Virus record (IMG/VR): IMGVR_UViG_3300018411_000017
DNA length: 64,000 nucleotides
DNA from: a virus
Lineage: Duplodnaviria; Heunggongvirae; Uroviricota; Caudoviricetes
Reading direction: 5' to 3' (one strand)
This document shows positions 244-27,851 of this stretch, one piece after another. The notes below the pieces were generated by a model. That model was not told where the DNA came from. It saw only the letters and a program-made list of their open reading frames with translations, and searched no databases. The position numbers were made by a program, and so were the translations under genes. Each line of letters starts with the position of its first letter. The first letter of the stretch is position 1.

Positions 244-585
244 TTATTCAATTAAATCTAGTCTTATAAGATCTGTTAATATTTGCATCATAGATCCTAA
301 ATTTCCAGCCGTTAAATTGGAACCAAAAGAATATTCATCAAAGAAGTCTGAAACTTTCATTTGGCCTTTAATAAGCTTTTCTAAATCTTCGGTCATATTA
401 GATATATATTTTTTATATAAATCACTTTTTTCACCAAATTTAGCTAGTTCTAATCCTAGCGATTTTTCTACCAAATATAATACTTCCTCTTCTGAAATAC
501 TCCTTGTTAGATTAAATCCGAACGGTATACCGCTTTCGGAATATATAACTTTAAAAGGTTTTAATTCTATGGTTTTTTCTTTCAT
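244..585 (-). CDS. hypothetical protein
   Basis: 113-aa ORF at the 3' end of the long minus-strand array; no recognisable motif. Confidence 0.45.
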   Translation of the reverse strand: MKEKTIELKPFKVIYSESGIPFGFNLTRSISEEEVLYLVEKSLGLELAKFGEKSDLYKKYISNMTEDLEKLIKGQMKVSDFFDEYSFGSNLTAGNLGSMMQILTDLIRLDLIE

Positions 586-596
586 ATCTATTTATT

Positions 597-1151
597 TTAT
601 GATAATCTTCTTATCATTAAATTAAAAAAAGCTTCATTTGATGAAGCCTCTCGTGCTATATCTTTAATAACTTTTGAATTTCTACGTTTTCTTAGCTTTA
701 AAAAGTCCAACGGTATTCCGTGGTGATTAACAGAGCTTAAGAGATCTGCATTAGGCCCTATGTCGAATACAATTGATCCATTAGGTTTATCAGATACATA
801 AGATTCATCACTATAGACAACGTCATTGTCGCACAGGTTTTGCAAACAATCTATTAATTTGGCTATGGTTTGAAACTTTCGTTTTAATACGGAATGTCTC
901 TCTTCATTTAAAATTCTTAATTGTTTTTGCAATTCTATAATCATATTATCAGTTGGATCAATTTTATACATAGAATATATCAACCATCCTCCTTGACCAA
1001 GATTTAAAGATTCTCTTGTTCCTTTATCTATTGGTAATGAAAAATATCGCATAAATAAAGGATTTTTATATATAGCTATAACACATTCAGTTATATTGCC
1101 TTTAAAGAAAATAAAATCGTTTAGATTATATTCATTCTTTATTATTTTCAT
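597..1151 (-). CDS. hypothetical protein, paralog family A (1 of 3)
   Basis: 184 aa; N-terminus MKIIKNEYNLNDFIFFKG..IAIYK..FMRYFSLP is shared with the next two ORFs. Confidence 0.55.
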   Translation of the reverse strand: MKIIKNEYNLNDFIFFKGNITECVIAIYKNPLFMRYFSLPIDKGTRESLNLGQGGWLIYSMYKIDPTDNMIIELQKQLRILNEERHSVLKRKFQTIAKLIDCLQNLCDNDVVYSDESYVSDKPNGSIVFDIGPNADLLSSVNHHGIPLDFLKLRKRRNSKVIKDIAREASSNEAFFNLMIRRLS

Positions 1152-1707
1152 GATCTAATATTGTATTTAATAAATATTTAAAAACCGTAGAATCGCCTAA
1201 TGCTGTATATGCGAAATTTCTGATATATTCATTGTTCTTTATTCCCATAAAAGATTTTATTGGAATATCACCATGATTTATTTTTATAATAGATGGGCAA
1301 TAACGAGGACTATTTTCAGTAAATAAAGGTGAATCAATTTTCCCATTTGAAATATAGTCTCCGTATTTGAAAATAATATCTTTTGAAGAAAAATCGAACA
1401 ACACATCCACTAAAGAAACAAGCGCTTTAAACTCTGTATTCAACCTTGAATATGGCTCTGTTTCTATTAAACGAAGGCAAGATTTTAAAGCTGAAACCAT
1501 TTCGGGTATAGGTTTTATTTGGTCCATTCGATCTTGAACCCAATCCTTAGATCCAATTTGTAAATTGTCATATTTATTAGTCAATATTGGAAATGAAAAG
1601 AATTCCATAAAGATTTTCACTTTATATACAGCTATAATAGTCCCAGTTGATCTTCCTTTATAAAATAAAAAATCATTTACATCGTATTTACTTTTTAATA
1701 TTTTCAT
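1132..1707 (-). CDS. hypothetical protein, paralog family A (2 of 3)
   Basis: 191 aa; MKILKSKYDVNDFLFYKG..IIAVYK..FMEFFSFP. Confidence 0.55.
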   Translation of the reverse strand: MKILKSKYDVNDFLFYKGRSTGTIIAVYKVKIFMEFFSFPILTNKYDNLQIGSKDWVQDRMDQIKPIPEMVSALKSCLRLIETEPYSRLNTEFKALVSLVDVLFDFSSKDIIFKYGDYISNGKIDSPLFTENSPRYCPSIIKINHGDIPIKSFMGIKNNEYIRNFAYTALGDSTVFKYLLNTILDHENNKE

Positions 1708-2257
1708 AATTTATCATAGTCTCTAAAAGTGGGCTCATTAATCCTGGCTCTGAAAGAACATCAAATATAAGCTCTTGAGTATCTGCGCAGCTTTGAGATT
1801 CAACAAAAACCATGTCATTTGTTTGTTCTAAAAAGGCTTTAACTGAGCGATCTTCATATATATTCAAAGCAATATCAGAATCTATTTTATTGGTAATAAG
1901 GTATTTATGTGCATATGTTGTTTTGCTACATGCTAAATCACATAGAAAATCCATAAGCTTTACTAGGCTATTAAATTTTTCCACAAGTACAACATTAAGA
2001 GTTGTCTCCATTTTGTGTATTTGTCTCTTTAATTCGGATATCATTTCTTGATCTGGTTCAATGTCACTAAACCGATATATATCCCAGTCATTTCCGCCTA
2101 ATCTATCTTCCACTTCTTGCGTTATAGGCTTTTTTATAGGAAATGTAAACAAACCCAATCCAGCCATTGTACCATAGGTAGCAAGTATTCTTCCAGTTTC
2201 AATACTCCTACAAAAAAGAAAGTTGTCTAATTTATATTTAGATTTTAATATTTTCAT
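1688..2257 (-). CDS. hypothetical protein, paralog family A (3 of 3)
   Basis: 189 aa; MKILKSKYKLDNFLFCRS..ILATYG..FTFP. Confidence 0.55.
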   Translation of the reverse strand: MKILKSKYKLDNFLFCRSIETGRILATYGTMAGLGLFTFPIKKPITQEVEDRLGGNDWDIYRFSDIEPDQEMISELKRQIHKMETTLNVVLVEKFNSLVKLMDFLCDLACSKTTYAHKYLITNKIDSDIALNIYEDRSVKAFLEQTNDMVFVESQSCADTQELIFDVLSEPGLMSPLLETMINYENIKK

Positions 2258-2697
2258 AATATAAAACTTTTAAGATAAGTAATGCCATTTGGAATTTCAA
2301 AATTCAATTCATTTTTATTAAAACGCAAGGCATGCTCAAATGTATGAATTCTTTTCTCTCCTATATATTTAGTTTCACATGTTATAAAATTTTCATACAG
2401 ACGAATTTCATATTCATCTTTTAGTAACATAAATGACGGTGTTTCAAGAATGCCTAAATGAGAAAAAGCATCTTCATATGTTGTTTCTATTAATGAAATT
2501 TTTCTAATTTCTAAACGGCCTATTTGCGGGAAAAGGGCATCATATAAAAATCTATGACCATTTAATAAATTAATACCATCATCAGAAAGCTCTGACCCGT
2601 AAATAATTTTAGGCATATCTTTAAATAAAACAGGATCATCTCCATAGCTTTTAGATATAAATAAATTTATTTCAATTGGTTTCCTTGTTATTTTCAT
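2254..2697 (-). CDS. hypothetical protein
   Basis: 147-aa ORF starting MKI, tightly packed in the array. Confidence 0.5.
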   Translation of the reverse strand: MKITRKPIEINLFISKSYGDDPVLFKDMPKIIYGSELSDDGINLLNGHRFLYDALFPQIGRLEIRKISLIETTYEDAFSHLGILETPSFMLLKDEYEIRLYENFITCETKYIGEKRIHTFEHALRFNKNELNFEIPNGITYLKSFIL

Positions 2698-2701
2698 GTG
2701 T

Positions 2702-3013
2702 TTATTTATTATAATGATACCAGTCCAAGGATGCTTGTAACCAGAATTCGTGACCTTCAGGAGTGTTATCCCAGTTAAAACATCTTGTAAGAAATCCTGA
2801 TTTCATTCTTTCATCAAAAAACGAACTAAAATTATTTATTTTATTTGTTTTCTCTTTTGAAAAATTGTAAATATATTTATCTAAAAGATTATGATCGATT
2901 AAAAATTCTTTAAACGAAATTGGCATAAAATCTTCTAAACTATTTTTTCCTTTTATTTTCATATTAACAACATTTAGCCAACTGATACCATTGATAGTCA
3001 TTCTCAATTGCAC
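2702..3013 (-). CDS. family B small protein (W..T.EG..YW motif), divergent member
   Basis: 103 aa; C-terminal FNWDNTPEGHEFWLQ matches the family B motif. Confidence 0.5.
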   Translation of the reverse strand: MQLRMTINGISWLNVVNMKIKGKNSLEDFMPISFKEFLIDHNLLDKYIYNFSKEKTNKINNFSSFFDERMKSGFLTRCFNWDNTPEGHEFWLQASLDWYHYNK

Positions 3014-3209
3014 ACCAAAAGGTAAAGCCTTCTTTTGAGAGAGAAAAAGAAAAGGAATTTATTGATGTGATTTTATGTCTAACGTTACCTTTTTCAAATT
3101 TAATTACATTATCTATAAATATATCTAATATATCCCATCCCTTTAAGAATGCTAGCAAATCAGAGTCTATTCTAGATATAACTAATTCTTTATTTTTAAT
3201 TATTTTCAT
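2964..3209 (-). CDS. family B small protein
   Basis: 81 aa; LAFLKGWDILDIFIDN ... FSLSKEGFTFWCAI. Confidence 0.55.
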   Translation of the reverse strand: MKIIKNKELVISRIDSDLLAFLKGWDILDIFIDNVIKFEKGNVRHKITSINSFSFSLSKEGFTFWCAIENDYQWYQLAKCC

Positions 3210-3475
3210 CTTTTTTCAATCCAAATATTAAAGTCATCATATATTTCACTCCAATAAGCATTTCCTTCTTTTGATTGTGTCCAAATAAATCCTTGGCGTG
3301 GTGTATGTACCGATTTGTTTTTATACTCTTTAAAAGATGTATAATTAACAAGATTATCGATAAAAATATCCAAGATTCCTTTCCAATTTAAAAACAATAT
3401 AAGATTGTCATCTAATTTATTTAGGGCTTCTTTGTCTAATCTAACTATTTTCATTAGTGCATTTCCATTTACCAT
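3206..3475 (-). CDS. family B small protein
   Basis: 89 aa; internal MKIVRL is the probable start; LFLNWKGILDIFIDN ... WTQSKEGNAYWSEI. Confidence 0.55.
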   Translation of the reverse strand: MVNGNALMKIVRLDKEALNKLDDNLILFLNWKGILDIFIDNLVNYTSFKEYKNKSVHTPRQGFIWTQSKEGNAYWSEIYDDFNIWIEKR

Positions 3476-3698
3476 ATTCTAAATCAATCTGGTCCCAATA
3501 TCTATAACCTTCTCTTGTTTCACTCCAAGTAAAAGCCTCAATTGGCCTAGATATACTTTTGTGTTTTGCTACAGAAAACACAGTATCACTAATAAAATTA
3601 TATATAAATATATCTAGTAATCCTTTCTCTTTCAAAAAAAGTATCAAATGATCTGATAACTTAGATAAGGCTTCTCCGTTTTGTTTTTTAATTTTCAT
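3441..3698 (-). CDS. family B small protein
   Basis: 85 aa; LFLKEKGLLDIFIYN ... FTWSETREGYRYWDQI. Confidence 0.55.
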   Translation of the reverse strand: MKIKKQNGEALSKLSDHLILFLKEKGLLDIFIYNFISDTVFSVAKHKSISRPIEAFTWSETREGYRYWDQIDLEYGKWKCTNENS

Positions 3699-3927
3699 TT
3701 TCTAAAACTTTTAGCCATTTACTCAATATTGCACACCAAAAATCAAAGTCTTCTTCTCTCCATGAAAAAGCTGCTGCTAATAAAACTTGAGGTGATGTTG
3801 TTTCAACATATTCTCTAAGGAATTCTTCATTTTTTTGATCAAACCCACCTTCTTCAAGAAATTTATTTAAACAATCTGTTTCAAATAAAAACTCTATAAA
3901 ACGATCGTAGATTTTATTTTTATCCAT
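3688..3927 (-). CDS. family B small protein (divergent)
   Basis: 79 aa; FLFETDCLNKFLEE ... FSWREEDFDFWCAI. Confidence 0.45.
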   Translation of the reverse strand: MDKNKIYDRFIEFLFETDCLNKFLEEGGFDQKNEEFLREYVETTSPQVLLAAAFSWREEDFDFWCAILSKWLKVLENEN

Positions 3928-4183
3928 GCTTTTCTTTAAGTTTTTGAATTATATAATTATCAAAATCAATCTGTATTTTTCTCCAATAAGAAGGTCCTTC
4001 TGGAGTATCCCTGAAGACAATAGTGCCTGCTATAGAATAAAATTTCATTCTTTCACTATAGCCCATAGCCTCTATATTTTTCACAAATTTATCTAAGCAA
4101 TTATTTTTCTGTAAAAACTCTAATAATATTGGCGATATTCTATTTACTATGCTTTTGTTTAATTTAACTATTTTCATATTCAT
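3920..4183 (-). CDS. family B small protein
   Basis: 87 aa; EFLQKNNCLDKFVKN ... FRDTPEGPSYWRKI. Confidence 0.55.
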   Translation of the reverse strand: MNMKIVKLNKSIVNRISPILLEFLQKNNCLDKFVKNIEAMGYSERMKFYSIAGTIVFRDTPEGPSYWRKIQIDFDNYIIQKLKEKHG

Positions 4184-4427
4184 TCCAATAATCTACCAAT
4201 TTATCATGCAACTCTCCCCAATAAATACCACCTTCGACAGTTTCGTCCCAAGTAAAAGAAAATAATATAGAATCTTCAATTCTATATTTAGAAATTACAG
4301 ATAATGGATCTTTATGTTGACTATTAATATTATTAAGGAATTTATGCAATGCATCATGTTCTATTAAAAAAGAAACCAAATTTTCGTTTAAATCCTCTTT
4401 TCGCAGAGTTCTTTTCCCTATTTTCAT
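4164..4427 (-). CDS. family B small protein
   Basis: 87 aa; SFLIEHDALHKFLNN ... FTWDETVEGGIYWGEL. Confidence 0.55.
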   Translation of the reverse strand: MKIGKRTLRKEDLNENLVSFLIEHDALHKFLNNINSQHKDPLSVISKYRIEDSILFSFTWDETVEGGIYWGELHDKLVDYWNEYENS

Positions 4428-4429
4428 AA

Positions 4430-4675
4430 TTAAAATTCTTTTTCTATTTTTTCTTGCATTTCAGACCAATAATGAAAGCCTTCAGGAGTAATGCTCCATG
4501 CAAAAGCAGTCCATAATATTACTTTTGGTTTATATTCTTTTATTTTAGATATAGGATCTTCATGAGAGTTATTGAAATTGTCTATAAAACTGTACAAAGC
4601 TCCATTCTTTCTTAAAAAAGAAGCAAATATGCAATCTAAATCTGATTCAGTTATTTTTCTTTTAGTTATTTTCAT
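4430..4675 (-). CDS. family B small protein
   Basis: 81 aa; SFLRKNGALYSFIDN ... FAWSITPEGFHYWSEM. Confidence 0.55.
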   Translation of the reverse strand: MKITKRKITESDLDCIFASFLRKNGALYSFIDNFNNSHEDPISKIKEYKPKVILWTAFAWSITPEGFHYWSEMQEKIEKEF

Positions 4676-4998
4676 AATAAATAAATTTAGTACCCCAAAT
4701 TGGATTCAAACCAATGTTTTAACCTTGAAGAGTTACGCCCTAGATCACTAGACGATTGGGGCTTATTAATAGTAGCAAGTATAAAATACACATAGGCCAA
4801 GTTAAAAGCGAAGACAAAGACCAGCTTCTAAACTAAGGCAAAGACAAAGTATTTTTTGTTTATTTTCTTAGAAGCTGTCGGTTTTTTGTTTGCTCATATA
4901 GCGTATATATTTTCGTCGCAAAACGCGTCGATCACGGTTTTGTATTTCATACTTGCTCAAAGTATAATATTAAATCTAATTTGATTTTAATTATACAC

Positions 4999-5889
4999 CT
5001 ATTTTATTAATGAATTTAATTCATCAAACAACTTTTGGAAATCAGATGGTATAACAATCTTGAGTTCAAGAAGCTCTTTCTTTTGTTCTTCAATAAAAGC
5101 TTCAGCCTGTTTGGCATATGTAGCAATAACTCTGTCATATTCTTCTGATTGAGCAGCATATTCCCTTTTAGCTTTAAGATTATGATCATCCATGATCTGC
5201 TTAACCTTAAACTTTAAAGAATTAAGCTGCTTATTTGCCGTTCTATGAGCAGACTGTAATTGCATGAATGTTTCATTCACCTCATCGACATCTGCTGATG
5301 GGGAATAAGTGTAGACTAGAGCATCACTCCCAGATCCAACCAGTTTAATTGGTTCTTTTCTTTTCAGTTCTAATTTGCGCCTCGCTTCAGCAAATGATTT
5401 GCCAGGATGAATCCGATTGCCTATAGCCGCTGAGGTAGCTTCTAAGATAAGATATCTTATTCTTTCTTGTTGAGATAATAATGCAATAGCATCATCTTCT
5501 GTCATAAAATCAAGACTGTGCGAACTTCTAGGATCAACAATTTCAATGCCTTTAATTTTTAAGAATTTTGAAGTAGAAATTCCTTCTATATAATCCAATT
5601 CTTCTTCTTTAGCTTTGATAGCTTCACGTAAATATGCGATCAAAGCGTTGCATTCTGCAACCTTATTAATTGATAAAACAATATTTCCTAATTCATCAGT
5701 ATCATAACCTTTTTCGGTAAGTTTTGATACATCTGAGGAAATTAAGCCAACATTGCAATTAACAAATGTAATATTTTCAAGTAGTGCTCTACTCTCTTCC
5801 ATTACTTCTTTTGCTATATTTGCGATGTGATTTGCGGAAGTTGAGGTTATACCTTTTGTTCCAAAAAATATCTTATTTTTCTCTTTCAT
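4999..5889 (-). CDS. hypothetical protein
   Basis: 296-aa ORF with a coiled-coil-rich C-terminus; no motif recognised. Confidence 0.55.
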   Translation of the reverse strand: MKEKNKIFFGTKGITSTSANHIANIAKEVMEESRALLENITFVNCNVGLISSDVSKLTEKGYDTDELGNIVLSINKVAECNALIAYLREAIKAKEEELDYIEGISTSKFLKIKGIEIVDPRSSHSLDFMTEDDAIALLSQQERIRYLILEATSAAIGNRIHPGKSFAEARRKLELKRKEPIKLVGSGSDALVYTYSPSADVDEVNETFMQLQSAHRTANKQLNSLKFKVKQIMDDHNLKAKREYAAQSEEYDRVIATYAKQAEAFIEEQKKELLELKIVIPSDFQKLFDELNSLIK

Positions 5890-5960
5890 ATTTCTATAAA
5901 TAAAAAATAGAACACCTATATGTATAGATGCTCTATTTTAATATATTTATTTATTTATTC

Positions 5961-6758
5961 TTACTTTGTAATTCTTAGGAATTCAGGAACAACTCCATAT
6001 AACGGGGCAGACCCATTCCACTTGTCGATAAATTGCTTGTATAGAATTTCCTTTGTCAAACCTCGGCTTGCGATAATAGCTTGTTGGGTTTTAAGTTCTT
6101 CAAGCTCATTTCGTTTTCGCTGTTCAATAATCTGTTGTTCTAAAACTGTAACATTTGTATTAACCTCATTACGGTTGTCGATTTTAGCTTTTACTTTCTG
6201 ACTAAATTCTAACTGTGCTGAAAATGTTAACAATTCAAAGCCTCGTTTAGCAAACTCTTGCTTGACTATTGCTTCTAAACGTTTTTCAAATAATAAAGAA
6301 CCTTGGTTTGCCATAAGTGTATCTGTTGAATACTTTCGGCTTTCCTCTTTCATTAAATCATAAATTCTTGGTTCTAGTATATTATCTTCTACTGCGTCAA
6401 GAAAATCATCGCCTATGCCTATATGTTTATTATCGAATATAACATCAATAGGCTTATCCGGCATAACTTTATAAGAATAAACTGGACGAGCAGAAAACTC
6501 TGTATTATCAGCCGCTTTTAGAGTATCAGGATTATCAAACTCTCCACGTTGCTCGAACGCTGGAACTTGATATAGCTCAGTACCCCAAGCCATCACATTG
6601 ACTTTACCGGTTACAATACGAAAATCGCTTTTACCTGCCTTACCATAATTTGTCATTAAGACCCCATAATGGTTCAGTTCAACTCTTTCACAACTCTGGA
6701 AAATAAAAGTGAGCATTAGCAAACTAATTGCTAAAAAGCTCTTAAAGAAATTTTTCAT
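5961..6758 (-). CDS. putative lipoprotein with SPFH/band-7 (prohibitin-like) domain
   Basis: Signal peptide plus lipobox (..IFQSC); HYGVLMTNYGK..GTELYQVP resembles the SPFH N-terminal motif; C-terminal coiled coil (EQQIIEQRKRNELEELK). Confidence 0.45.
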   Translation of the reverse strand: MKNFFKSFLAISLLMLTFIFQSCERVELNHYGVLMTNYGKAGKSDFRIVTGKVNVMAWGTELYQVPAFEQRGEFDNPDTLKAADNTEFSARPVYSYKVMPDKPIDVIFDNKHIGIGDDFLDAVEDNILEPRIYDLMKEESRKYSTDTLMANQGSLLFEKRLEAIVKQEFAKRGFELLTFSAQLEFSQKVKAKIDNRNEVNTNVTVLEQQIIEQRKRNELEELKTQQAIIASRGLTKEILYKQFIDKWNGSAPLYGVVPEFLRITK

Positions 6759-6908
6759 AAATTTTTTGAATTAAAAAACTTGTAAATATTAATAATATAA
6801 AAAATAAAAATATAGCTAACCATGGGTCTATAAAATTAAAGAGCCATGCTATTATATTTATGTCTAAGATAATCGCAACAGCAATTATCATTATAAGCGC
6901 AAATTGTT

Positions 6909-7094
6909 TCATGTTGTTTTTGTTGTTTTAGAATCTTCCATAATAACAATCCACATTACTCCCCATAAGAAAAAAAACAATGAATCTCCAAGAGATAGTA
7001 AATTTAATTGTTCACTATCTACATATTCAGCAAATTTAAACCCACTTGCAAAAACGATTCCAATTAACAATATATAATTAAAAATTTTGCTCAT
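6909..7094 (-). CDS. small membrane protein
   Basis: 61 aa, two hydrophobic segments. Confidence 0.4.
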   Translation of the reverse strand: MSKIFNYILLIGIVFASGFKFAEYVDSEQLNLLSLGDSLFFFLWGVMWIVIMEDSKTTKTT

Positions 7095-7303
7095 TTGAAT
7101 ATGTTATTTATAAAATTGTAAAATAAATTTTTAATCTGGTTCATATATATAACTAATATTATTAATGATATACATGAGATTAGAAAAATAAAAGCGTTTT
7201 CTCCATGTGATTTTGTTACTATTACAAAACAAAGCAACAGCAATGCTATATGAATAACATTGACTATTATTGTAATTAATAGTTTTTTAAGGTTTTCTTT
7301 CAT
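7091..7303 (-). CDS. small membrane protein
   Basis: 70 aa, highly hydrophobic. Confidence 0.4.
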   Translation of the reverse strand: MKENLKKLLITIIVNVIHIALLLLCFVIVTKSHGENAFIFLISCISLIILVIYMNQIKNLFYNFINNIFK

Positions 7304-7312
7304 AATACTAAA

Positions 7313-7714
7313 TTATTTGATTTCTTCCATCCATTGTTGGATGGTAATTTCCATTGAGCTAGTTCTTTTTGCTAGTTTCGGGAAAATACCGCTATAAACA
7401 GATTCAACTTCTACTTCTTCTCCTTTTATAAATAATGCCAGATCTGTTTCATCTTTAACATAAGCCTCTTCAGATATATCAACGACGACTGTCCTCGTTA
7501 AAGGGTTTTCAGAACTAACGGTCATGGTCCTTTTAATCTTATTTTTTGTAATGATTTTAGATTTATTCGCTACAGGAATACTTGTAGCCGTTTCAAATAG
7601 AATATCTAAAGCAGATTCATGTTGTTCTTCCGGTAAAAATGAAATTAAATTTGCAACGGCAGAATTTTCAATTTTAGCAGTTTCTAATATTTTTTTAATT
7701 AGTTTTGAATTCAT
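7313..7714 (-). CDS. hypothetical protein
   Basis: 133-aa ORF. Confidence 0.5.
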   Translation of the reverse strand: MNSKLIKKILETAKIENSAVANLISFLPEEQHESALDILFETATSIPVANKSKIITKNKIKRTMTVSSENPLTRTVVVDISEEAYVKDETDLALFIKGEEVEVESVYSGIFPKLAKRTSSMEITIQQWMEEIK

Positions 7715-8067
7715 AATTCTTTATTTTTAATATAATTATTTATTTTTTCTTTCAGATTTTCAAGATCATTTGTATAATCTTTTAGATATACTATCTCAAT
7801 ACGAGATCCTTTAATTGAGCTTTCGCCTATTTGTTCGGTATAATATTTTATATTATTAATTCTTTTAGCAGACAATCTAAACCCGGCAACTGAGGAGACA
7901 ACTTGATCTTTTAATGATTTCTCCATACGCTCATGGGTTGAGTGAGCAAACACGCATCTCACATCTTTAAGTATTCTCATTAAAATCTCAACTTCTGTTC
8001 CGTTTTGTACGGCAATAACAACATCATGATCAAGATTAAAATGTTCAATTTGTTTTGTTATCTTCAT
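7711..8067 (-). CDS. hypothetical protein
   Basis: 118-aa ORF starting MKI. Confidence 0.5.
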   Translation of the reverse strand: MKITKQIEHFNLDHDVVIAVQNGTEVEILMRILKDVRCVFAHSTHERMEKSLKDQVVSSVAGFRLSAKRINNIKYYTEQIGESSIKGSRIEIVYLKDYTNDLENLKEKINNYIKNKEL

Positions 8068-8254: not shown

Positions 8255-8282
8255 AATGTTTAAGTTTTTTAGTTAATAGTAG

Positions 8283-9061: not shown

Positions 9062-9065
9062 GATA

Positions 9066-19529: not shown

Positions 19530-19555
19530 AAGTGTTTATTTTATAAATTATTAAG

Positions 19556-20049: not shown

Positions 20050-20272
20050 CAATATATCATGAACACAACGGTCTAGATGTTTGATCATTGTGTTTAATCC
20101 ATAATATAGAAAAACTATACTTTTCTTTTATTCTCCAGAGCTTTAATGATGTTTGCAACCATTACTAAAGATGTTGGATAAGAGGATCTATCTCTTGCCA
20201 GGACTTTATATCCACACTATTATCCTAACTTTAATAGTGTGAATCTAGTTTTAAAGGATCTAGAAACCTAAT

Positions 20273-20620
20273 CTATAAATCTAATCGCTCTAATATCGGA
20301 GTTAATTTATCTTTCAACTCAGGATAATAGCGATACATGGTCGTTCTTGCATTCAATGATTTATCAGGTTTTGTTAAAGAACTGCACTCCCAATCTATTA
20401 TCATTGAAGTATAGTTTTTCCAAACAATGCTTTCAGGATGATGAGAGCTGAATTTGCGGTGAATCTTTTGTACGTATTTATATGGCATAATTAATCTAAG
20501 CCAAGGCTTATACCAATCATGAAATAAATGATACGGTTTCCAAACACCTAACAACACAGCGGTCATATTAAAAGCCAACCAATGAGCAAACCAATAAGAA
20601 AAAGACGATTTTTTATACAT
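20273..20620 (-). CDS. hypothetical protein
   Basis: 115 aa, Trp/Tyr-rich. Confidence 0.45.
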   Translation of the reverse strand: MYKKSSFSYWFAHWLAFNMTAVLLGVWKPYHLFHDWYKPWLRLIMPYKYVQKIHRKFSSHHPESIVWKNYTSMIIDWECSSLTKPDKSLNARTTMYRYYPELKDKLTPILERLDL

Positions 20621-20625
20621 AACAG

Positions 20626-21087
20626 TTATTCTAAATCTTTAACACAGCGAACTGTAAATTGATAATCGCCACTAATATAACCTTTTGAGATATAATCTCT
20701 AGCTCCACAAAAATAAAAACGATTACCTCTGATTGCTTCATCTCTTCCAGATCCCCAAAATTGAAAAGAATTAGGTTCATCTATAATATCACATTCATAA
20801 CGGCTTTTATAGCCTAAAAATGGTAAAAATAAAGATTGATCTGTTTTTAAAAGTTTTTTCTTTTCAGCAAACCATATTCCACGTAACTCCTTGTCTTCAA
20901 TTCTATATAAATTTCGTAATTGATCAATATCAAAACGATCTGGAAGTCTTTTCCCTTCTTGCAAAGCCAATCTTGTGGCTTCTTCATGCGTAAAATGGAC
21001 TTGACCAGAAACAGTTAAATTAGATCTGTCCCAAGCTGTGCCATTTAATATGATAATATCGTTTTCGGGTTTTTTAACAATCTTCAT
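20626..21087 (-). CDS. family C: FISUMP-like domain protein
   Basis: ILNGTAWDRSNL ; KRLPDRFDIDQL ; SLFLPFLGY ; C-terminal FTVRCVKDLE (canonical FISUMP end motif). Confidence 0.65.
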   Translation of the reverse strand: MKIVKKPENDIIILNGTAWDRSNLTVSGQVHFTHEEATRLALQEGKRLPDRFDIDQLRNLYRIEDKELRGIWFAEKKKLLKTDQSLFLPFLGYKSRYECDIIDEPNSFQFWGSGRDEAIRGNRFYFCGARDYISKGYISGDYQFTVRCVKDLE

Positions 21088-21405
21088 TTAAGGTAACCTT
21101 TCAATTATAACATTCGACTTAGCCCACTCCCATGTATCATAGCTAATAAAACCCCAATTTGGATTGTCTTCATCTGGATCAAATGTGTAATATTCAAACG
21201 TATAATTTTTATGCATACCCCAGTCACAAGATTCATATATTTCTTGAGCTAATTTCGTATCAATAGCTTGTCCAAAGTTATTAAGCAAAGTAACTCGATA
21301 TATTGGCTTGCCATGATTTCTATCAAAATCAACTTTTCGATCACATCCATGACAACTGCAAATTAAAAGGACAAGCGTTATTAACAATAATATCTTTTTT
21401 ATCAT
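21088..21405 (-). CDS. lipoprotein
   Basis: 105 aa; signal peptide with lipobox LLICSC. Confidence 0.5.
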   Translation of the reverse strand: MIKKILLLITLVLLICSCHGCDRKVDFDRNHGKPIYRVTLLNNFGQAIDTKLAQEIYESCDWGMHKNYTFEYYTFDPDEDNPNWGFISYDTWEWAKSNVIIERLP

Positions 21406-21731
21406 TTTTCTTTCATGTTTTTAAGAATGTTATAGACTTTAATCTTGTTATATATTCTAGACACTAAAATATATATCAGACAAAACATTATAAATATAGA
21501 TTCAATGGTTATAGCAAACCAAGAGAATAAACCAGATAGTATAACCAATATCCATTGAATATGGCTAGTGTAATACAAATCTTTGATTCCTAATAGACTT
21601 ACCATAATACTCATGGAAATGATAGAACCAATTCCATAAAGTAATATGCCAAATAAAATTAACATTATCATACTATAATCTCCATAAAAGATATAACATG
21701 TAAATAAGAAATATCGTAGCAAAAATGCCAA
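21402..21731 (-). CDS. membrane protein
   Basis: 109 aa, multi-TM. Confidence 0.4.
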   Translation of the reverse strand: MAFLLRYFLFTCYIFYGDYSMIMLILFGILLYGIGSIISMSIMVSLLGIKDLYYTSHIQWILVILSGLFSWFAITIESIFIMFCLIYILVSRIYNKIKVYNILKNMKEK

Positions 21732-22032
21732 AAGAAACGAAGAATCCTATTGAAAGTATTGTATCTATAACAGGATAAACTTTTATTTCTGGAATTTGGC
21801 ATATTACAAATGGTACAAATAATGTTGCGGCTATTTTAGCTGACACGACAGCTATACGTAAAAAGAATTCAGCTATTTTAGTCATAAAGCTTATCAATAT
21901 CATAGTCAAATAAATAATCAAATAAATTACCGATCTTATGAAACCAATTCTTTTTGGGTTTAAATCGGAAGTATTTATTTGGATCTTCTTCAGGATATGG
22001 ATATACTCTTCGAACTTTCCAACCTTTTTCAC
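21673..22032 (-). CDS. membrane protein (overlaps next ORF; one of the two is probably shorter)
   Basis: 119 aa, multi-TM; 155-nt overlap with 21878..22267. Confidence 0.35.
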   Translation of the reverse strand: MKKVGKFEEYIHILKKIQINTSDLNPKRIGFIRSVIYLIIYLTMILISFMTKIAEFFLRIAVVSAKIAATLFVPFVICQIPEIKVYPVIDTILSIGFFVSFGIFATIFLIYMLYLLWRL

Positions 22033-22267
22033 TGTAAATCTTCATTAACTCTGATACAACATCTTCAGACATATCTTTTTCAATACTTATAAAATCTGGA
22101 GATTTTTTAGCTAAATCCAATATTTCATAATCATAAATGTCAACCCATCCTTTTTTATATTTTCTTACTAGTAAAAGGTTGATAGTTTCAATTATCAGGC
22201 TAGGATCAGTTTTTTTAAGCGACTTAACCTCATCAGGTGTTAACGCTTGAGATCTACTAATTTTCAT
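21878..22267 (-). CDS. hypothetical protein
   Basis: 129 aa starting MKISRSQ. Confidence 0.45.
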   Translation of the reverse strand: MKISRSQALTPDEVKSLKKTDPSLIIETINLLLVRKYKKGWVDIYDYEILDLAKKSPDFISIEKDMSEDVVSELMKIYSEKGWKVRRVYPYPEEDPNKYFRFKPKKNWFHKIGNLFDYLFDYDIDKLYD

Positions 22268-22273
22268 AATAAT

Positions 22274-22645
22274 TTATCTTATTTCTTCAAAATCAACACC
22301 AACAGAATAATAACCATTTGACTCTCCGTACCATCTGATTGTTACATCTCCTTTAAAGGTAGACAATTTATAAAAAGTCCAGCAATAAAGATCATCGTGG
22401 TATTCTTTGTTAACATCTATAGGATCTTCGTCGCTCGTTTCTTTTTCAGCTAATAATATAGGAGAGTTTAGTAAGTCGTTAATATCTCCACAGACATCTT
22501 CTATAGAAACTCTTTCGCAACAGTCTTGGCTATGTTTCATCTCAAATCTACGTCCTTCAGACGTCGTGAAAATGACTTCAGCAGAGTCGTCTTCCAATCC
22601 ATCAATAGATGTAATCGTAAGTCCTTTTAATATACTAAAATTCAT
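22274..22645 (-). CDS. hypothetical protein
   Basis: 123-aa acidic ORF. Confidence 0.45.
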   Translation of the reverse strand: MNFSILKGLTITSIDGLEDDSAEVIFTTSEGRRFEMKHSQDCCERVSIEDVCGDINDLLNSPILLAEKETSDEDPIDVNKEYHDDLYCWTFYKLSTFKGDVTIRWYGESNGYYSVGVDFEEIR

Positions 22646-22648: not shown

Positions 22649-22873
22649 TCATTTTTGTTTAAGTTCAACAAATATAATATCTTGTTTATCCGATCGACTC
22701 TCCCGGCCACATGGCCCAGTGAAATTATTTGGGCACTCATCCATATTTTGATCTGTAAAAATACATTTTTCACAACTGTAATTTTCTGATTCTACAGAAA
22801 CACATTGCAGCATCTTTAACCCAAAAGCAAACACCTCTCCAATGTTATATTCTGTTTTCTGTTTTATTTTCAT
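22649..22873 (-). CDS. family D Cys-rich mini-protein
   Basis: 74 aa; IGEVFAFGLKMLQCV..CEKCIF..C...GPC...IIFV. Confidence 0.55.
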   Translation of the reverse strand: MKIKQKTEYNIGEVFAFGLKMLQCVSVESENYSCEKCIFTDQNMDECPNNFTGPCGRESRSDKQDIIFVELKQK

Positions 22874-22880
22874 ATTATTT

Positions 22881-23099
22881 TTACTCTTCTGATTTCACAA
22901 AAATAACATCAGTTTTATCATCTCTTTTCCGCTTACCACATAATCCAATAACTTCCGTATATTTTTCATGGCAATTAATATCACAAAAAAAACAACCAAC
23001 ACAAAAATTCTCTTTTTCACTAGTAACGCATTTTAATCTTATTAGTCCAAACTGAAATGTTTCTCCAATTTGAAACTGATTTTTCTTATTTATCTTCAT
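22881..23099 (-). CDS. family D Cys-rich mini-protein
   Basis: 72 aa; IGETFQFGLIRLKCV..CVGCFFC..C...GLC...VIFV. Confidence 0.55.
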   Translation of the reverse strand: MKINKKNQFQIGETFQFGLIRLKCVTSEKENFCVGCFFCDINCHEKYTEVIGLCGKRKRDDKTDVIFVKSEE

Positions 23100-23105
23100 A
23101 ACCCA

Positions 23106-23543
23106 TTATTCTAATATACATATTACACTGTGCCCGTATTTTATATTATAGTCATGAGTGAATAGCCGGTGTTTGCCAAAGGTTAAAGAAGTCTTATAAT
23201 ATTCATATTTGTCAGAAGAACTCCAATAATATCCATATTGATTAAATTCTTTTATTATCGTAGAAGGAGGATCTATAAAACCATCAGCAGGTAAAAATAA
23301 AGACTTATCAGATGCAATATCTTCTGGATTTTCTGCGAACCACATACCATTTTTTGTATCGTCCCATAAGTTCGGAAGATTAATCAAATCCTCAAACTCC
23401 TCTTTAGTAGGGAGACGTCTATTTGAACTATTGAGAATGTCAATCGCTTGTTGATATGTGAAATAAGTTTGCCCATGAACCTCAAGAGCTATTGTGCTCC
23501 ATTTTAAACCATTTAAGATAACATGTGTTTTTTTTATTTTCAT
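23106..23543 (-). CDS. family C: FISUMP-like domain protein
   Basis: ILNGLKWSTIAL ; RRLPTKEEFEDLINL ; SLFLPADGF ; YYWSSS. Confidence 0.65.
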   Translation of the reverse strand: MKIKKTHVILNGLKWSTIALEVHGQTYFTYQQAIDILNSSNRRLPTKEEFEDLINLPNLWDDTKNGMWFAENPEDIASDKSLFLPADGFIDPPSTIIKEFNQYGYYWSSSDKYEYYKTSLTFGKHRLFTHDYNIKYGHSVICILE

Positions 23544-23561
23544 ATTAAATTCTCCATGTTT

Positions 23562-23813
23562 TTATTTTTTATAATATTTTGCTGAAACGAACCAACAATT
23601 AAATTTACTACAATCAATCGGATCGCCATATTCATCTATAGATCCCTCGCCATTATGCCCTCGAGTAGGAATTTGGATGCAATAATAAAGCCCATAACCA
23701 GATTTCGTGTGATATCCTATAATACAACAACGATCTCCATCATGATAAATATAATCTCCGATCTTATATTTAAAATCACCATCTATACGCTTTCTTTTAC
23801 CTATTATTTTCAT
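23562..23813 (-). CDS. family E small protein (2 of 2)
   Basis: 83 aa; MKIIGKRKRIDGDFKYKIGDYIY...IIGYHTKSGY. Confidence 0.5.
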   Translation of the reverse strand: MKIIGKRKRIDGDFKYKIGDYIYHDGDRCCIIGYHTKSGYGLYYCIQIPTRGHNGEGSIDEYGDPIDCSKFNCWFVSAKYYKK

Positions 23814-24715: not shown

Positions 24716-24779
24716 GTCCGCTTGCAAGAATCGAACTTGCATTCCTTAAACTAAGGTTCTACCATTGAAATAAAGCGGG
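24716..24779 (-). ncRNA. tRNA-like element with miniaturised anticodon arm
   Basis: Minus strand: acceptor CCCGCTT/AAGCGGA (C1-A72 mismatch), D-arm TTTC-AATGGTA-GAA(C), T-arm GCAAG-TTCGATT-CTTGC; the anticodon position is only CCTTA-GTT-TAAGG, giving 64 nt total. Confidence 0.45.
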
Positions 24780-26100: not shown

Positions 26101-26616
26101 TTATTTTCTTTTTTTTAAACAATCCATAGCGAATGGATAAGCTTCAGGATATAACTCTTTAATATCTTCAAGAATATCACAATCCAATAATTTAGATATA
26201 ATAGAAGAATGAGTACAAGTCATCTCTTCTGCATTAAGAGCCATAGCATTATTAAAACTTCTAAGAGAAGTCAATTCTTCTAAGCTTACTTCAAACTCAG
26301 GTTTGGACGGATTTATAGGATATCTTACAGTACCTTCATATTGAAACCTGTGATCTCCATTGACAAAAATTGCAGTAGTAGAAAATTTAGCCATAATTGG
26401 ATTAATACGAATTACATTGAGAATATCGTTATTTGACATTCCCTTAGTAATCGAATCGCTTAAAAGAGCTTTACGGAAAAAATCTTCATCTATTTTACTT
26501 AAAATTAAACCGTTAACAAAAGATCTACATTTATTTTTCAACCGATTATCCTTAATCATAAAAGATTTAGTCATATCATCAGCGATTTGAACCGCCAAAC
26601 TCATTGTCATTTTCAT
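26101..26616 (-). CDS. hypothetical protein
   Basis: 171-aa ORF. Confidence 0.5.
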   Translation of the reverse strand: MKMTMSLAVQIADDMTKSFMIKDNRLKNKCRSFVNGLILSKIDEDFFRKALLSDSITKGMSNNDILNVIRINPIMAKFSTTAIFVNGDHRFQYEGTVRYPINPSKPEFEVSLEELTSLRSFNNAMALNAEEMTCTHSSIISKLLDCDILEDIKELYPEAYPFAMDCLKKRK

Positions 26617-26647
26617 ATCTTAAAAGTTTTAATTGCTATAACAAATA

Positions 26648-27163
26648 CTAACTGTTTTTAGCCAAAGCCAATATGTTCTTAATCTCCATAACAGAAGGAG
26701 ACTCAACAGGAACACTAGCTCTTGCCATTTCCAAATATTTATAAGCTTCAGGAAACTCAGACTGAACCCTTTTATAAGTACCAAGCTTCAATAAGGTAGA
26801 CTCAATCTTATTAATTAAATCCATCTTAACCTTATAAAGAGCTTTTAACTCATCATGCAATGCCTTGATCTGAGCGAAAACTTTAGGAGAAACAGTAATT
26901 ACGGCCTGCTCACTAGGAAGCCTTCTACATTTTATATAGTTCAATCTGTTAACTCCATCTGATAAATTAACCTCACTCCTAGTAATAAAATACTTCGGAT
27001 ATTTCTTACTTATTTCCAATACTTCTATCGGAGTATTAGCAATAACTTCATCAGATACCATATCCAATAATTTAGACTCCAAAGGAGCAATCTTTGAATC
27101 ATATGCCGAATTAGACATCTCCTTAGAGATAATCTCGGCGATCTTTATTGTTATCTTTGACAT
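26648..27163 (-). CDS. hypothetical protein
   Basis: 171-aa ORF. Confidence 0.5.
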   Translation of the reverse strand: MSKITIKIAEIISKEMSNSAYDSKIAPLESKLLDMVSDEVIANTPIEVLEISKKYPKYFITRSEVNLSDGVNRLNYIKCRRLPSEQAVITVSPKVFAQIKALHDELKALYKVKMDLINKIESTLLKLGTYKRVQSEFPEAYKYLEMARASVPVESPSVMEIKNILALAKNS

Positions 27164-27182
27164 AATATTTATTTTAACTGTT

Positions 27183-27473
27183 TTACATAACTAAAAAATC
27201 GAAGCCTATCTCAATGTTAATCTCAGAGAAGTTTTTAATTACCTCATCCTGTATAGAAGTGATAACCAATGCCTCTCTGTCTTTAATCATCAAAGACCTA
27301 ATAATACCCTCTCTCGGAATGTTATCTGAGTTGTTGAAATAAAAACATTTTATACCATTTTTCTTAGAAACACAACGGTTCAAAGCATCCAATATCCTCT
27401 CGTCAATAATCTGCTCTAACGATATTAAGAAAAACTCTGTATGTAATGATTTCTGTTCGTGAAAACTTTCCAT
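27183..27473 (-). CDS. hypothetical protein
   Basis: 96-aa ORF. Confidence 0.45.
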   Translation of the reverse strand: MESFHEQKSLHTEFFLISLEQIIDERILDALNRCVSKKNGIKCFYFNNSDNIPREGIIRSLMIKDREALVITSIQDEVIKNFSEINIEIGFDFLVM

Positions 27474-27668
27474 TATTCTTTTTTTTTATACTTAATCATT
27501 CTTATCTATATCATAGGGCTCGCGCCGAAACCCGCACTAGCAAAGGGCTTGAGCGATTTTTGAGCTTGTTTTTGAAGCGGAAAAGTTGGGAGATGGTGAT
27601 AGCCACCATCCCTCAACCTCCCATTAAATTAACACAAATTAACTTAATGTAACTAATTAAAAACAAAC

Positions 27669-27851
27669 CTACTTATGAACTATTTCTGCCTCTATTATGA
27701 ATTTAATTGTTTCGAACGCAATGTCCGGATTTTGTTCGGCCTCCATAACAGATTTTATTAATTCCTTTTTAATATTGAAGTCATCGAGTTTAACTTGTTT
27801 GATTATTATTTTGTTATTCTCGACTTCGACTTGTAATGTTTCTATTTTCAT
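27669..27851 (-). CDS. hypothetical protein
   Basis: 60-aa ORF starting MKI; first gene of the minus-strand block. Confidence 0.4.
   Translation of the reverse strand: MKIETLQVEVENNKIIIKQVKLDDFNIKKELIKSVMEAEQNPDIAFETIKFIIEAEIVHK

Follow-up and report, generated by a model that had tools for sequence, protein, structure and literature searches.

In our study, the long block of small genes on the minus strand of the analysed DNA (the window, 64,000 nucleotides) was found to be remodelled between close relatives by recombination, both between paralogs in register and at short stretches of homology. The block appears to be the accessory arm of a phage and is probably expressed early, the timing being suggested by analogy and by its position beside a candidate origin and a Rep gene. 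We favour, with reasonable confidence, the whole reading in which an accessory arm of old paralog families, remodelled by recombination, would hold a counter-defence and takeover repertoire.

244-27851, minus strand: co-directional block of 72 small genes (ORF coverage and start refinement), left end cut by the window edge.
27852-28239, no strand assigned: upstream boundary, a 388-nt AT-rich region with 21-nt (x3.3), 15-nt and ~18-nt direct repeats.

An ENA metagenome contig of 158,426 bp matches the window with 100% identity. The portal protein has 42-45% identity to those of uncultured phages from the gut, while its identity to the portals of crAss-like phages and of Cellulophaga phi14:2 is 22-25%; by sequence, the source appears to be an uncultured ~158-kb phage with a distantly crAss-like portal. 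The opposite arm holds PhoH, GroEL, a split TerL, the portal and a giant tail-like ORF. From 1 to 28 kb the minus strand is 80-100% covered by ORFs of at least 60 aa and the plus strand is covered little. Start refinement left 72 non-overlapping minus-strand ORFs of at least 45 aa in 244-27851, with a median of 111 aa (61 of 72 have 150 aa or fewer) and 88.7% of the sequence coding. The first-pass annotation had described a single-strand block of about 70 small genes at these coordinates; strand and gene number were borne out, whereas the extent was not, as the window edge truncates the block, which on the source contig runs leftward for at least another 7.3 kb and 18 genes. The overlapping stop and start codons it had reported in many genes were also seen, 30 of the 72 junctions being overlaps and 15 of these 30 being 4-nt ATGA overlaps. 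The median dN/dS of 116 orthologue pairs is 0.15, and 98% of the pairs lie below 0.5, therefore the 72 small genes are real protein-coding genes. Recognisable domains are few, as had been claimed: among ~72 products only DUF7448, PF21825 and DUF551 passed the Pfam thresholds. The boundary region adjoins a diverging RepO/DnaD-like gene (28240-28959) and is a candidate origin and divergent control region.

Families were detected by BLASTP, iterated HMMs and phmmer, and comprise A (10 genes, the largest), B (8), C (9, including the 13974/23562 pair), D (3), F (2), G (2) and H (2), which make up 36 of the 72 genes.

597-2257, minus strand: family D tandem array, three genes of ~190 aa, all starting MKI (BLASTP).
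2702-4675, minus strand: family B tandem array, eight genes of ~82 aa with a W..T.EG..YW motif (BLASTP, iterated HMMs).
9066-10793, minus strand: family A array 1, four genes of ~140-148 aa, each a predicted stand-alone C-type-lectin-like domain (BLASTP).
11066-11880, minus strand: two family H genes of 138 and 133 aa, each starting MKI.
11877-12757, minus strand: family A array 2, two genes (BLASTP).
13974-15367, minus strand: family C array, six Cys-rich genes of ~75-87 aa, all starting MKI, including the divergent member 13974-14228 (BLASTP, HMMs).
17242-18520, minus strand: dispersed family A genes 17242-17700 and 18074-18520 with a singleton between them (BLASTP).
20626-21087, minus strand: dispersed family A gene (BLASTP).
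22649-23813, minus strand: family C pair 22649-22873 and 22881-23099, family A gene 23106-23543 and C-like gene 23562-23813 (BLASTP, HMMs).

The earlier proposal of at least seven paralog families withstood profile comparison, under which the seven neither collapsed nor merged. Iterated HMMs enlarged B and C, and hhalign among A, B, C and D gave probabilities of 1.4-3.6%, so that these four are distinct families and no single artefact. Amino acid identity between paralogs of the block is at most 47%, and self-BLASTN of the block detected no nucleotide-level self-similarity except one 65-nt 5' segment; judged by this divergence, the duplications behind the families are old. Family D has only 11 representatives among 1.84 billion proteins and is a lineage-restricted ORFan family. 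The predicted fold of family B is a small helical bundle (model pLDDT 88.5) which has no match in the PDB and matches uncharacterised crAss-like phage proteins in BFVD. Half of the genes of the arm belong to seven old, lineage-restricted paralog families, mostly in tandem arrays.

The block was compared with four collinear relatives (L004, L005, L008 and L010; 85-95% nucleotide identity). Whole-gene indels separate these relatives, and 41 of the 72 genes are absent from at least one. Copy number is also not conserved, since families B, D and one A array vary: across the window and the relatives family B has 8, 7, 7, 5 or 6 copies, family D has three or two (two in L010, through a 126-nt in-register junction), and family A array 1 has four or five, the extra 137-aa copy being present in L004, L005 and L008. 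Family H is represented by one copy in L008 and by one disrupted copy in L010. In L004, gene P0007 is a chimera, its 5' 194 nt being 91% identical to a 154-aa paralog and its 3' 370 nt 99% identical to a 10347-like gene. The crossover sits in the KRLPT-coding stretch between two family A paralogs and accounts for a 7.4-kb deletion. The first-pass annotation had seen a hyper-plastic region generating diversity by duplication; variable gene content and copy number agree with this, but the duplications are old, and present-day variation therefore consists mainly of loss, chimera formation and exchange and not of new duplication. In-register homologous recombination between paralogs produces chimeric genes and multi-kb deletions, and through short-homology recombination at 8-39 nt common to neighbours around the start codons exact cassettes are gained or lost.

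A conserved start context accompanies this plasticity. The motif ATGAAAATA has 37 matches in the window versus 4.4 +/- 2.3 in shuffles, 33 of them on the minus strand inside the block, and WTTATGAAAATA has 9 matches versus 0.3 expected. Starts of the block are MKI in 36 of 72 genes, close to the roughly 35 motif-bearing MKI genes counted earlier, and MK in 51 of 72; none of the 24 remaining genes of the window starts MKI. The MKI start is found in 31 of 36 family members versus 5 of 36 singletons and, counted by lineage, in 5 of 7 families versus 5 of 36 singletons (p = 0.004), and it marks five multi-copy families that are not homologous to one another. The shared start reads ATT-AUG-AAA-AUA behind an A-rich leader without a Shine-Dalgarno (SD) sequence. 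It is constrained at the nucleotide level, because ATGAAAATA is retained in 63 of 64 orthologous starts between block genes and relatives and the codon-3 isoleucine is ATA in 36 of 39 cases (48% background, p = 4.5e-9). Within ATGAAAATA, 1 of 128 synonymous third positions has changed versus 18% in gene bodies (p = 3e-10). It might be argued that MKI is a mere relic of the founder of each family, its function limited to encoding Met-Lys-Ile, as 31 of the 36 MKI genes fall in five families. We consider this improbable, since these families have no detectable homology and different predicted folds and five singletons carry MKI too; moreover, the AAA/ATA synonymous positions are ~20-fold more conserved than other third positions, the strong preference for ATA over ATT/ATC is confined to codon 3, and MKI is absent from the other genes of the window. 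In MT835470, a 117-kb INPHARED record with the second-closest portal (42% identity), the motif is nearly absent, with 1 occurrence in 117 kb.

Translation initiation in F. johnsoniae is determined, without SD, by an A-rich tract at -14 to -11, an A at -3 and an unstructured region (Baez et al. 2019, PMC6847099). The block starts fit this Bacteroidia pattern: they are likewise unstructured, no G-rich SD was found upstream of them, and A is over-represented from -14 to -10 and at -3. Half of the block genes additionally have exactly AAA AUA as codons 2-3, which lies outside the described signal. Avoidance of structure as the cause of the exact 9-mer was rejected, as non-MKI starts are equally unstructured (-1.1 versus -1.0 kcal/mol predicted for MKI starts). 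The start motif would primarily be a fixed context for translation initiation and early elongation, whose AUA codon may be decoded by tRNA-Ile(UAU), which the phage itself encodes within this block.

Alternatively, the motif may serve recombination as a dedicated signal embedded in coding sequence, comparable to T4 PeSL cassettes or integron attC sites, and actively drive duplication, deletion and exchange of cassettes; this would explain why its carriers are multi-copy, and we regard it as possible, though rather unlikely. Nine of ~27 distinct indel junctions lie in microhomology with TTTCAT or TTTTCAT (~2.5% expected, binomial p = 1e-8), and gene 22881-23099 is missing in three relatives with a junction of 20-39 nt that has the start motif inside. 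The tie to multi-copy families points in the same direction, as do the exact nucleotide conservation beyond the need of the protein, the MKIxK columns, which are the only ones common to families B and C in hhalign, and the 65-nt 5' module (83% identity) common to one family D gene and an unrelated, non-homologous singleton. However, small indels were counted in 17/112 cases for MKI genes against 14/80 for the other genes, which is not a significant difference; loss or gain is no more frequent for MKI genes than for the rest, and hence the motif cannot be shown to drive plasticity. Many of the junctions are found at other places or within paralog bodies, and a site-specific recombinase was not seen in the window. 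Selection of surviving clean excisions also biases junctions toward gene boundaries, and the start junctions may simply be survivors in which the neighbours were left intact. With translation as its primary role, the motif would secondarily supply microhomology for gain and loss of cassettes.

The tRNA-like elements and structured gaps said to be interspersed in the block are indeed present, as six elements (two canonical, four aberrant) and as several structured gaps.

4691-4762, minus strand: aberrant tRNA-like element, 6-nt anticodon loop.
8283-8351, minus strand: aberrant tRNA-like element, 6-nt anticodon loop.
13585-13687, minus strand: aberrant tRNA-like element, 20-26-nt insertion in the anticodon loop.
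15675-15747, minus strand: canonical tRNA-Glu(CUC).
19555-19627, minus strand: canonical tRNA-Ile(UAU).
19628-20272, minus strand: 645-nt non-coding stretch 5' of tRNA-Ile, predicted to be strongly structured (z = -4.3).
24716-24779, minus strand: aberrant tRNA-like element, truncated anticodon arm.

The codon read by tRNA-Ile(UAU), AUA, occupies position 3 in the MKI genes and is used for isoleucine more often in the block than any other. In L008 an 807-nt insertion with an HNH gene replaces the loop region of the 4691-4762 element, and the 8283-8351 element is 100% identical in three relatives and 98.5% in the fourth. Six of 12 gaps fold with z <= -3.9 versus dinucleotide shuffles (coding controls, -2.5 to +0.6); the 19628-20272 stretch differs between relatives.

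The family A model (pLDDT 91) has the Lcl C-terminal domain as its best PDB match (probability 0.97; E = 0.1, TM ~0.5), followed by C-type lectin-like domains, and HMM matches to Lcl_C and FISUMP are weak, scoring under the Pfam and NCBIfam thresholds. Family A thus resembles, on the predicted model, a stand-alone C-type-lectin-like domain of the Lcl_C/DUF1566/FISUMP kind. It shares with those domains the pattern NG..W, RLPT..E...L, YW and a C-terminal VR.V.D-like strand, and with them and DGR variable proteins a variability concentrated in the C-terminal half; it differs in being a cytoplasmic-looking 140-150-aa domain without signal peptide or partner domains, which begins at once (MKI..LNG..W) and has no lipobox. 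Several neighbouring genes have clear lipoprotein or transmembrane N-termini, and L005 encodes a 308-aa protein bearing the family A domain. In human microbiomes, no domains are more common among DGR targets than DUF1566 and Fib_succ_major (PMC4159848). Family A proteins, and perhaps others, could be exported or virion-associated adhesins or receptor-binding modules whose arrays form a host-range repertoire, not one for intracellular takeover or anti-defence. Such domains typically bind ligands outside the cell and serve as DGR targets in tropism proteins (PMC4159848), and both the Lcl adhesin match and the longer L005 protein agree with this; nevertheless it seems quite unlikely, as family A lacks the export signals that its neighbours have, sits in the non-structural arm distant from the tail genes and consists of single domains without an anchoring module. 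Targeted mutagenesis of these lectin-fold genes, for example by a diversity-generating retroelement, is extremely improbable although the fold class is a classic DGR target: the single 65-nt match in self-BLASTN leaves no TR/VR-like repeat in the block, no reverse-transcriptase match was obtained among block products or scanned right-arm proteins, and the paralogs differ along their whole length and by indels, not just at A-templated sites. Family A diversity comes from at least ten diverged paralogs instead of retro-mutagenesis.

Anti-defence functions had also been proposed for the region, and one concrete match was obtained, which concerns one of the 72 genes.

4999-8254, minus strand: conserved single-copy segment with a 296-aa protein, a predicted lipoprotein, hydrophobic proteins and others (relatives, dN/dS).
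13360-13560, minus strand: 66-aa Sequestin (PF21825, crAss001_48-like) homologue (Pfam HMM).

The homologue scores 50.4 bits against PF21825 (cutoff 24.8) over 57 of 61 HMM positions, its Q47 and R61 standing where SequestinA has pocket residues, and is kept in L005 and L010 and missing in L004 and L008. Tested members of the family sequester 3'cADPR and cancel type I Thoeris (bioRxiv 10.1101/2025.07.12.664507), which makes this gene, by family membership, a candidate 3'cADPR sponge against Thoeris. Genes of the conserved segment have the lowest dN/dS within the block; orthologues of the predicted lipoprotein (5961-6758) carry a precomputed Band_7 match, and three small hydrophobic proteins are encoded at 6742-7303.

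Among the closest known systems are the hyperplastic regions of T4-type phages, in which modules are shuffled by way of PeSLs (Arbiol et al. 2010, PMC2839356; Comeau et al. 2014, PMC4122927). These regions and the block are both one-strand clusters of small, mostly ORFan, dispensable-type genes with whole-gene insertion, deletion and replacement between close relatives, junctions at a short conserved sequence recurring at gene boundaries, and a Sequestin homologue, which in T4 is Y16O (bioRxiv 10.1101/2025.07.12.664507). In contrast, the T4 PeSL is an intergenic promoter and terminator cassette, whereas the repeat of the block is the translation start ATT ATG AAA ATA, which is partly coding, and block genes abut or overlap; sigma-70-type promoter matches are not enriched in the block, and large tandem paralog families, half of its genes, are atypical of T4-type regions. 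Host-takeover or pre-early modules (SPO1 gp37-60, the T5 pre-early region and the terminal-repeat genes of Herelleviridae) are long co-directional runs of small genes without assigned function beside a replication/control region and are thought to shut off the host and counter its defences. The block shares this arrangement. In such modules, which belong to large virulent phages, early promoters are strong and repeated and paralogs are few; the block instead shows a repeated context around the start codon, its seven paralog families and tRNA-like elements scattered among the genes.

The arm would provide the phage with a set of small proteins, binders or inhibitors, with which to counter defences and take over the host. 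This possibility draws on the Sequestin-family gene, tested relatives of which are 3'cADPR sponges, and on the lectin-like scaffold of family A, which tolerates extreme variation of its ligand-binding face and has here been diversified by paralogy.

The minus strand of the left 28 kb of the window, where the G+C content is 27-31%, was found to be almost entirely coding. Between 244 and 27851 it carries 72 genes of at least 45 aa (median 111 aa; 61 genes of at most 150 aa), which cover 88.7% of the span. This gene set comes from a greedy non-overlapping call, in which the start was moved to an in-frame Met-Lys-Ile (MKI) if the longest ORF opened a few codons upstream. Thirty of the 72 junctions overlap, 15 of these being of the 4-nt ATGA type, and an MKI start is present in 36 of the 72 genes; the single-strand block of small genes described in the first-pass annotation is therefore confirmed. 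Comparison with four longer contigs from relatives (L004, L005, L008 and L010) gave a median dN/dS of 0.15 across 116 orthologue pairs, with 98% of the values below 0.5, and hence the ORFs of the block are real genes. Window positions 10-12962 are 100% identical to the ENA contig ERZ27247961:k141_490116 (158,426 bp), on which the block runs at least 7.3 kb past the left edge of the window on the same strand, with 18 further genes, four of them MKI genes.

Half of the genes (36/72) were grouped into seven paralog families by BLASTP, iterated HMM searches and phmmer:

Family A, minus strand: 10 copies of about 145 aa, in two arrays and dispersed copies
2702-4675, minus strand: family B, 8 copies of about 82 aa, in tandem
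13974-15367 (array) and 22649-23813, minus strand: family C, 9 copies of about 75 aa, Cys-rich
597-2257, minus strand: family D, 3 copies of about 190 aa
Families F, G and H, minus strand: 2 copies each

Profile-profile comparison of families A, B, C and D against each other gave probabilities of only 1.4-3.6%, the columns common to B and C were limited to MKIxK, and the predicted folds differ, family A being alpha/beta and family B all-helical. For these reasons the families neither collapse nor merge, and the earlier claim of paralog families has withstood profile comparison. The families are old, the highest identity between paralogs being 47% at the amino acid level. Self-BLASTN of the block has shown no nucleotide-level similarity apart from one 65-nt stretch of 83% identity (1652-1713 against 18779-18842), which comprises the leader and the first ~19 codons of a family-D gene (MKILKSKYDVNDFLF) and of an unrelated singleton (MKILKKKIALNDFLSF) and amounts to a shared 5' module. 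Among 5.8 billion proteins, the homologues of families A, B and C are almost all same-lineage orthologues; a set of 1.84 billion proteins contains 11 representatives of family D. The model of family B is a confident helical bundle, for which the fold search gave no PDB match; its structural matches are to uncharacterised crAss-like phage proteins of ~92 aa.

The start context ATG AAA ATA is the repeated element of the block. ATGAAAATA occurs 37 times in the window in comparison to 4.4 +/- 2.3 in dinucleotide shuffles, 33 of the copies being on the minus strand within the block, and the count of the 12-mer WTTATGAAAATA is 9, where 0.3 would be expected. Of the 73 starts scored, 45 have AAA as the second codon and 36 have ATA as the third. 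The MKI start marks the multi-copy families: it is carried by 31/36 family members against 5/36 singletons (Fisher p = 7e-10) and, when counted by lineage, by five of the seven families against the same 5/36 singletons (p = 0.004). The motif is unchanged in 63 of 64 in-register orthologous comparisons, and its synonymous third positions have changed in 1 of 128 cases in comparison to a divergence of 18% at the third positions of gene bodies (p = 3e-10). Isoleucine at codon 3 is encoded by ATA in 36/39 cases, and in the rest of the block the share of ATA is 48% (p = 4.5e-9). The start motif is thus under constraint at the nucleotide level, beyond that acting at the amino acid level.

No G-rich Shine-Dalgarno (SD) sequence was found upstream of the block starts, which show an excess of A at positions -14 to -10 and -3 and of T at -2 and -1. 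In Flavobacterium johnsoniae, a member of Bacteroidia that ignores SD, this upstream pattern promotes initiation (PMC6847099). SD-less initiation of the Bacteroidia type is recognized by the absence of SD, A at -14 to -11 and at -3, and an unstructured initiation region (PMC6847099), and the block shows all of these features, with a mean MFE, taken from -20 to +20, of -1.0 kcal/mol at initiation regions against -4.0 for internal windows. MKI and non-MKI starts do not differ in this lack of structure, and hence the exact 9-mer must have a reason other than avoidance of structure. Genes of the other arm of the window are likewise without SD, but none of 24 starts with MKI. A TTAAAA(C) word at about -16 is ~3-fold enriched and confined to a quarter of the genes. 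The SD-less starts, together with lipoboxes of the SC type, suggest that the host belongs to the Bacteroidota.

The four relatives are collinear with the block at about 80-95% nucleotide identity and differ from it by whole genes, 41 of the 72 block genes being absent from at least one of them. Among the compared genomes, the copy number is 8, 7, 7, 5 or 6 for family B, 3 or 2 for family D and 4 or 5 for the array at 9066-10793, which bears out the proposed variation in copy number. L004 is without window 10678-18066 (7.4 kb) and L010 without 19134-22637. In L010, a family-H gene is also broken into fragments of 48 aa and 62 aa (8915-9316). Two modes of recombination are visible, paralog against paralog and start against start. 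The first is represented by the L004 gene P0007, a chimera whose 5' 194 nt are 91% identical to the 154-aa family-A paralog of L005 and L010 and whose 3' 370 nt match the 10347-like gene at 99% identity. The crossover took place within ~20 nt encoding the conserved KRLPT motif, and it accounts exactly for the 7.4-kb deletion in L004. In-register paralog junctions of the same kind were found in family B (85 nt) and family D (126 nt).

The second mode was recognized from microhomology of 8-39 nt that contains the start motif, read as its reverse complement TTTCAT or TTTTCAT, at 9 of ~27 distinct indel junctions, a total of our own counting; ~2.5% would be expected under random placement (binomial p = 1e-8). 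The start motif is therefore a junction in use. MKI genes were not lost or gained more often than the others (small indels 17/112 against 14/80), so a higher volatility of these genes is ruled out, and clean excisions are the most likely survivors. For both reasons the motif should be regarded as a used junction rather than a demonstrated driver of the plasticity.

The tRNA-like elements and structured gaps reported earlier were also recovered: six tRNA or tRNA-like elements are present, all on the coding strand, and half of the intergenic gaps are significantly structured. Two elements, tRNA-Ile(UAU) and tRNA-Glu(CUC), are canonical, and the other four have anticodon arms that are 6-nt, interrupted or truncated. 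The elements and structured regions are:

4691-4762, 8283-8351, 13585-13687 and 24716-24779, minus strand: aberrant tRNA-like elements, acceptor and T arms intact, anticodon arms aberrant
5890-5960, 12758-12837 and 15561-15674: terminator-like hairpins (predicted structure)
4763-4998, minus strand: long non-coding leader 5' of a tRNA-like gene (structure z = -5.7)
19628-20272, minus strand: long non-coding leader 5' of a tRNA gene (structure z = -4.3)

All six elements are 90-100% identical in the relatives (five of them 92-100%), and the surrounding aligned segments are 78-95% identical. tRNA-Ile(UAU) reads AUA, which is the third codon of the MKI start and also the commonest Ile codon in the block. 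The four aberrant elements may be decayed genes, processing signals or nuclease decoys. In L008, an 807-nt insertion (8124-8930) carrying a gene for a 238-aa HNH endonuclease replaces 10 nt (window 4723-4732) in the anticodon loop of the element at 4691-4762; a search of Rfam gave no match to a group I intron around it. The two long leaders matched no Rfam family and, from their predicted structures, may be stable RNAs of no known family. An AT-rich and repeat-rich region of 388 nt (27852-28239) separates the block from a RepO/DnaD-like gene that diverges from it (28240-28959); this region contains a 21-nt unit repeated 3.3 times, two copies of GCGAGTGCAACAGATACA and a 15-nt unit repeated twice. 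These repeats look like origin iterons, and the region is a candidate origin and control region.

Family A was modeled with a pLDDT of 91, and its top PDB match is 8q4e, the C-terminal domain of Legionella Lcl (probability 0.97, E = 0.1, TM 0.48-0.53), followed by many C-type lectin-like domains. At the sequence level, the best score against Lcl_C was 23.6 bits, below the cutoff of 34.9, and FISUMP TIGR02145 was matched below its curated threshold by three of the ten members (best E = 1e-4). No match was obtained in the PDB sequence-profile search or by tblastn of a family A protein against INPHARED. L005 also encodes a 308-aa protein (7723-8649), possibly a fusion, whose N-terminal part is a family-A domain. 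Domains of the Lcl_C/DUF1566/FISUMP type are the commonest target of diversity-generating retroelements (DGR) in human microbiomes (PMC4159848). A reading of the block as a DGR target was rejected, since it contains no pair of template and variable repeats (TR/VR), the 65-nt 5' match being its one nucleotide-level repeat, and no reverse transcriptase was matched among the block products or the scanned right-arm proteins.

The statement that almost none of the products have recognizable domains holds, as only three pass a Pfam threshold:

22274-22645, minus strand: DUF7448 product
16621-16821, minus strand: DUF551 product
13360-13560, minus strand: PF21825 product

Several of the block genes encode lipoproteins or small membrane proteins, and a PADLOC scan gave marginal matches only. 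The 66-aa product of 13360-13560 matches PF21825 at E = 2.1e-13 (50.4 bits, cutoff 24.8) over profile positions 4-60 of 61 and is, on this profile match, a predicted member of the Sequestin family. Tested members of this family, which includes T4 Y16O, sequester 3'cADPR and cancel type I Thoeris, and the conserved pocket residues of SequestinA are E12, Q47 and R61 (bioRxiv 10.1101/2025.07.12.664507). Matched by residue number without alignment, the block protein has Q47 and R61 at the pocket numbers and E13 beside position 12. Of the relatives, L005 and L010 carry the gene and L004 and L008 lack it. We infer that the block products may serve counter-defence and takeover, as a repertoire of small proteins that bind or inhibit.

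As for the identity of the phage, megablast of both window halves against INPHARED gave no match, nor did the exact 49-mer and portal-based scans of IMG/VR. A place in Crassvirales would call for a portal, TerL and MCP closely homologous to those of crAss-like phages and for a giant virion RNA polymerase. The portal is 42-45% identical to those of uncultured human-gut phages and 22-25% identical to crAss-like and Cellulophaga phi14:2 portals. None of the block genes has a homologue in MT835470, a 117-kb genome with a portal of 42% identity, and ATGAAAATA occurs there once in 117 kb. The other arm encodes RepO/DnaD-like, PhoH, 2155-aa fibre-like, exonuclease, GroEL, split TerL, portal and amidase products and a giant tail-like ORF; TerL and portal have PHROG matches. 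The giant ORF (57371-64000, plus strand; at least 2209 aa) is cut by the right end of the window and matches 'tail protein' PHROGs of 3000-3600 aa and no RNA polymerase. Stop-codon recoding or non-coding DNA at 57.4-64 kb is ruled out by this one plus-strand ORF. TerL lies in two plus-strand ORFs (51235-52128 and 53236-54444) matching the N- and C-terminal halves of one PHROG, with an endonuclease gene (52192-53052) between them; TerL may be interrupted by an intron or a mobile element, or it may be truly split. Another free-standing nuclease gene (32694-33638, plus strand) encodes a protein of 314 aa, the C-terminal domain of which is HNH / endonuclease VII-like. GroEL (48264-49853, plus strand; 529 aa; PHROG E = 6e-130) is 43% identical to a Flavobacterium GroEL, and this lone genome match, found through pattern pre-filtering only, is uninformative about the host.

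The hyperplastic accessory region of large phages is a well-known kind, represented by the hyperplastic regions (HPRs) of T4 (PMC2839356, PMC4122927). Like the HPRs of T4-type phages, which are clusters of small, dispensable and mostly ORFan genes varying among close relatives, the block has few recognizable domains and 41/72 variable genes. In both, indel or replacement junctions fall at a repeated element, in the block at the start motif (9 of ~27, with microhomology of 8-126 nt). PeSL shuffling in T4-type phages is also marked by excised mini-circles, which arise when the repeats recombine. Whereas the T4-type regions carry PeSL cassettes between genes, consisting of a sigma-70-like early promoter and a stem-loop terminator, the block is without such a cassette. 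Its sigma-70 promoter-like sites are not enriched (124 against 129.8 in shuffles), terminator-like sites number 8 against 5.7 in shuffles, the repeated element is the start-codon context, and most genes abut or overlap. What is unusual in the block is the scale of tandem paralogy, an invariant start 9-mer that multi-copy families share in spite of being non-homologous and that serves as an indel junction, an array of stand-alone proteins with a predicted lectin fold, and the conserved aberrant tRNA-like elements.

We regard it as a speculative and rather improbable reading that the AUG-AAA-AUA start is a dual-use element, acting at both the DNA and RNA levels, and that the tRNA-like elements are not decayed genes. 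At the DNA level, the start would serve as a short homology where gene cassettes get duplicated, deleted and swapped, as a coding-embedded analogue of PeSLs or attC, and this would explain why the motif-bearing genes became multi-copy families. At the RNA level, the AUA codon would make translation of the families as a set dependent on tRNA-Ile(UAU), which the phage itself encodes in the same block. As a further part of this reading, the tRNA-like elements with crippled anticodon arms would act as processing punctuation or as decoys for host anticodon nucleases.

New anti-defence and host-takeover proteins are repeatedly discovered in the hyperplastic regions of large phages. The present block comes from an abundant, uncultured lineage with Bacteroidia-type signals, and it offers seven protein families with natural copy-number variation and a validated anti-defence family as a landmark. 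Its start 9-mer makes two ideas testable, that a translation start can also serve for recombination, as a junction, and that a phage tRNA can gate the expression of a gene set.
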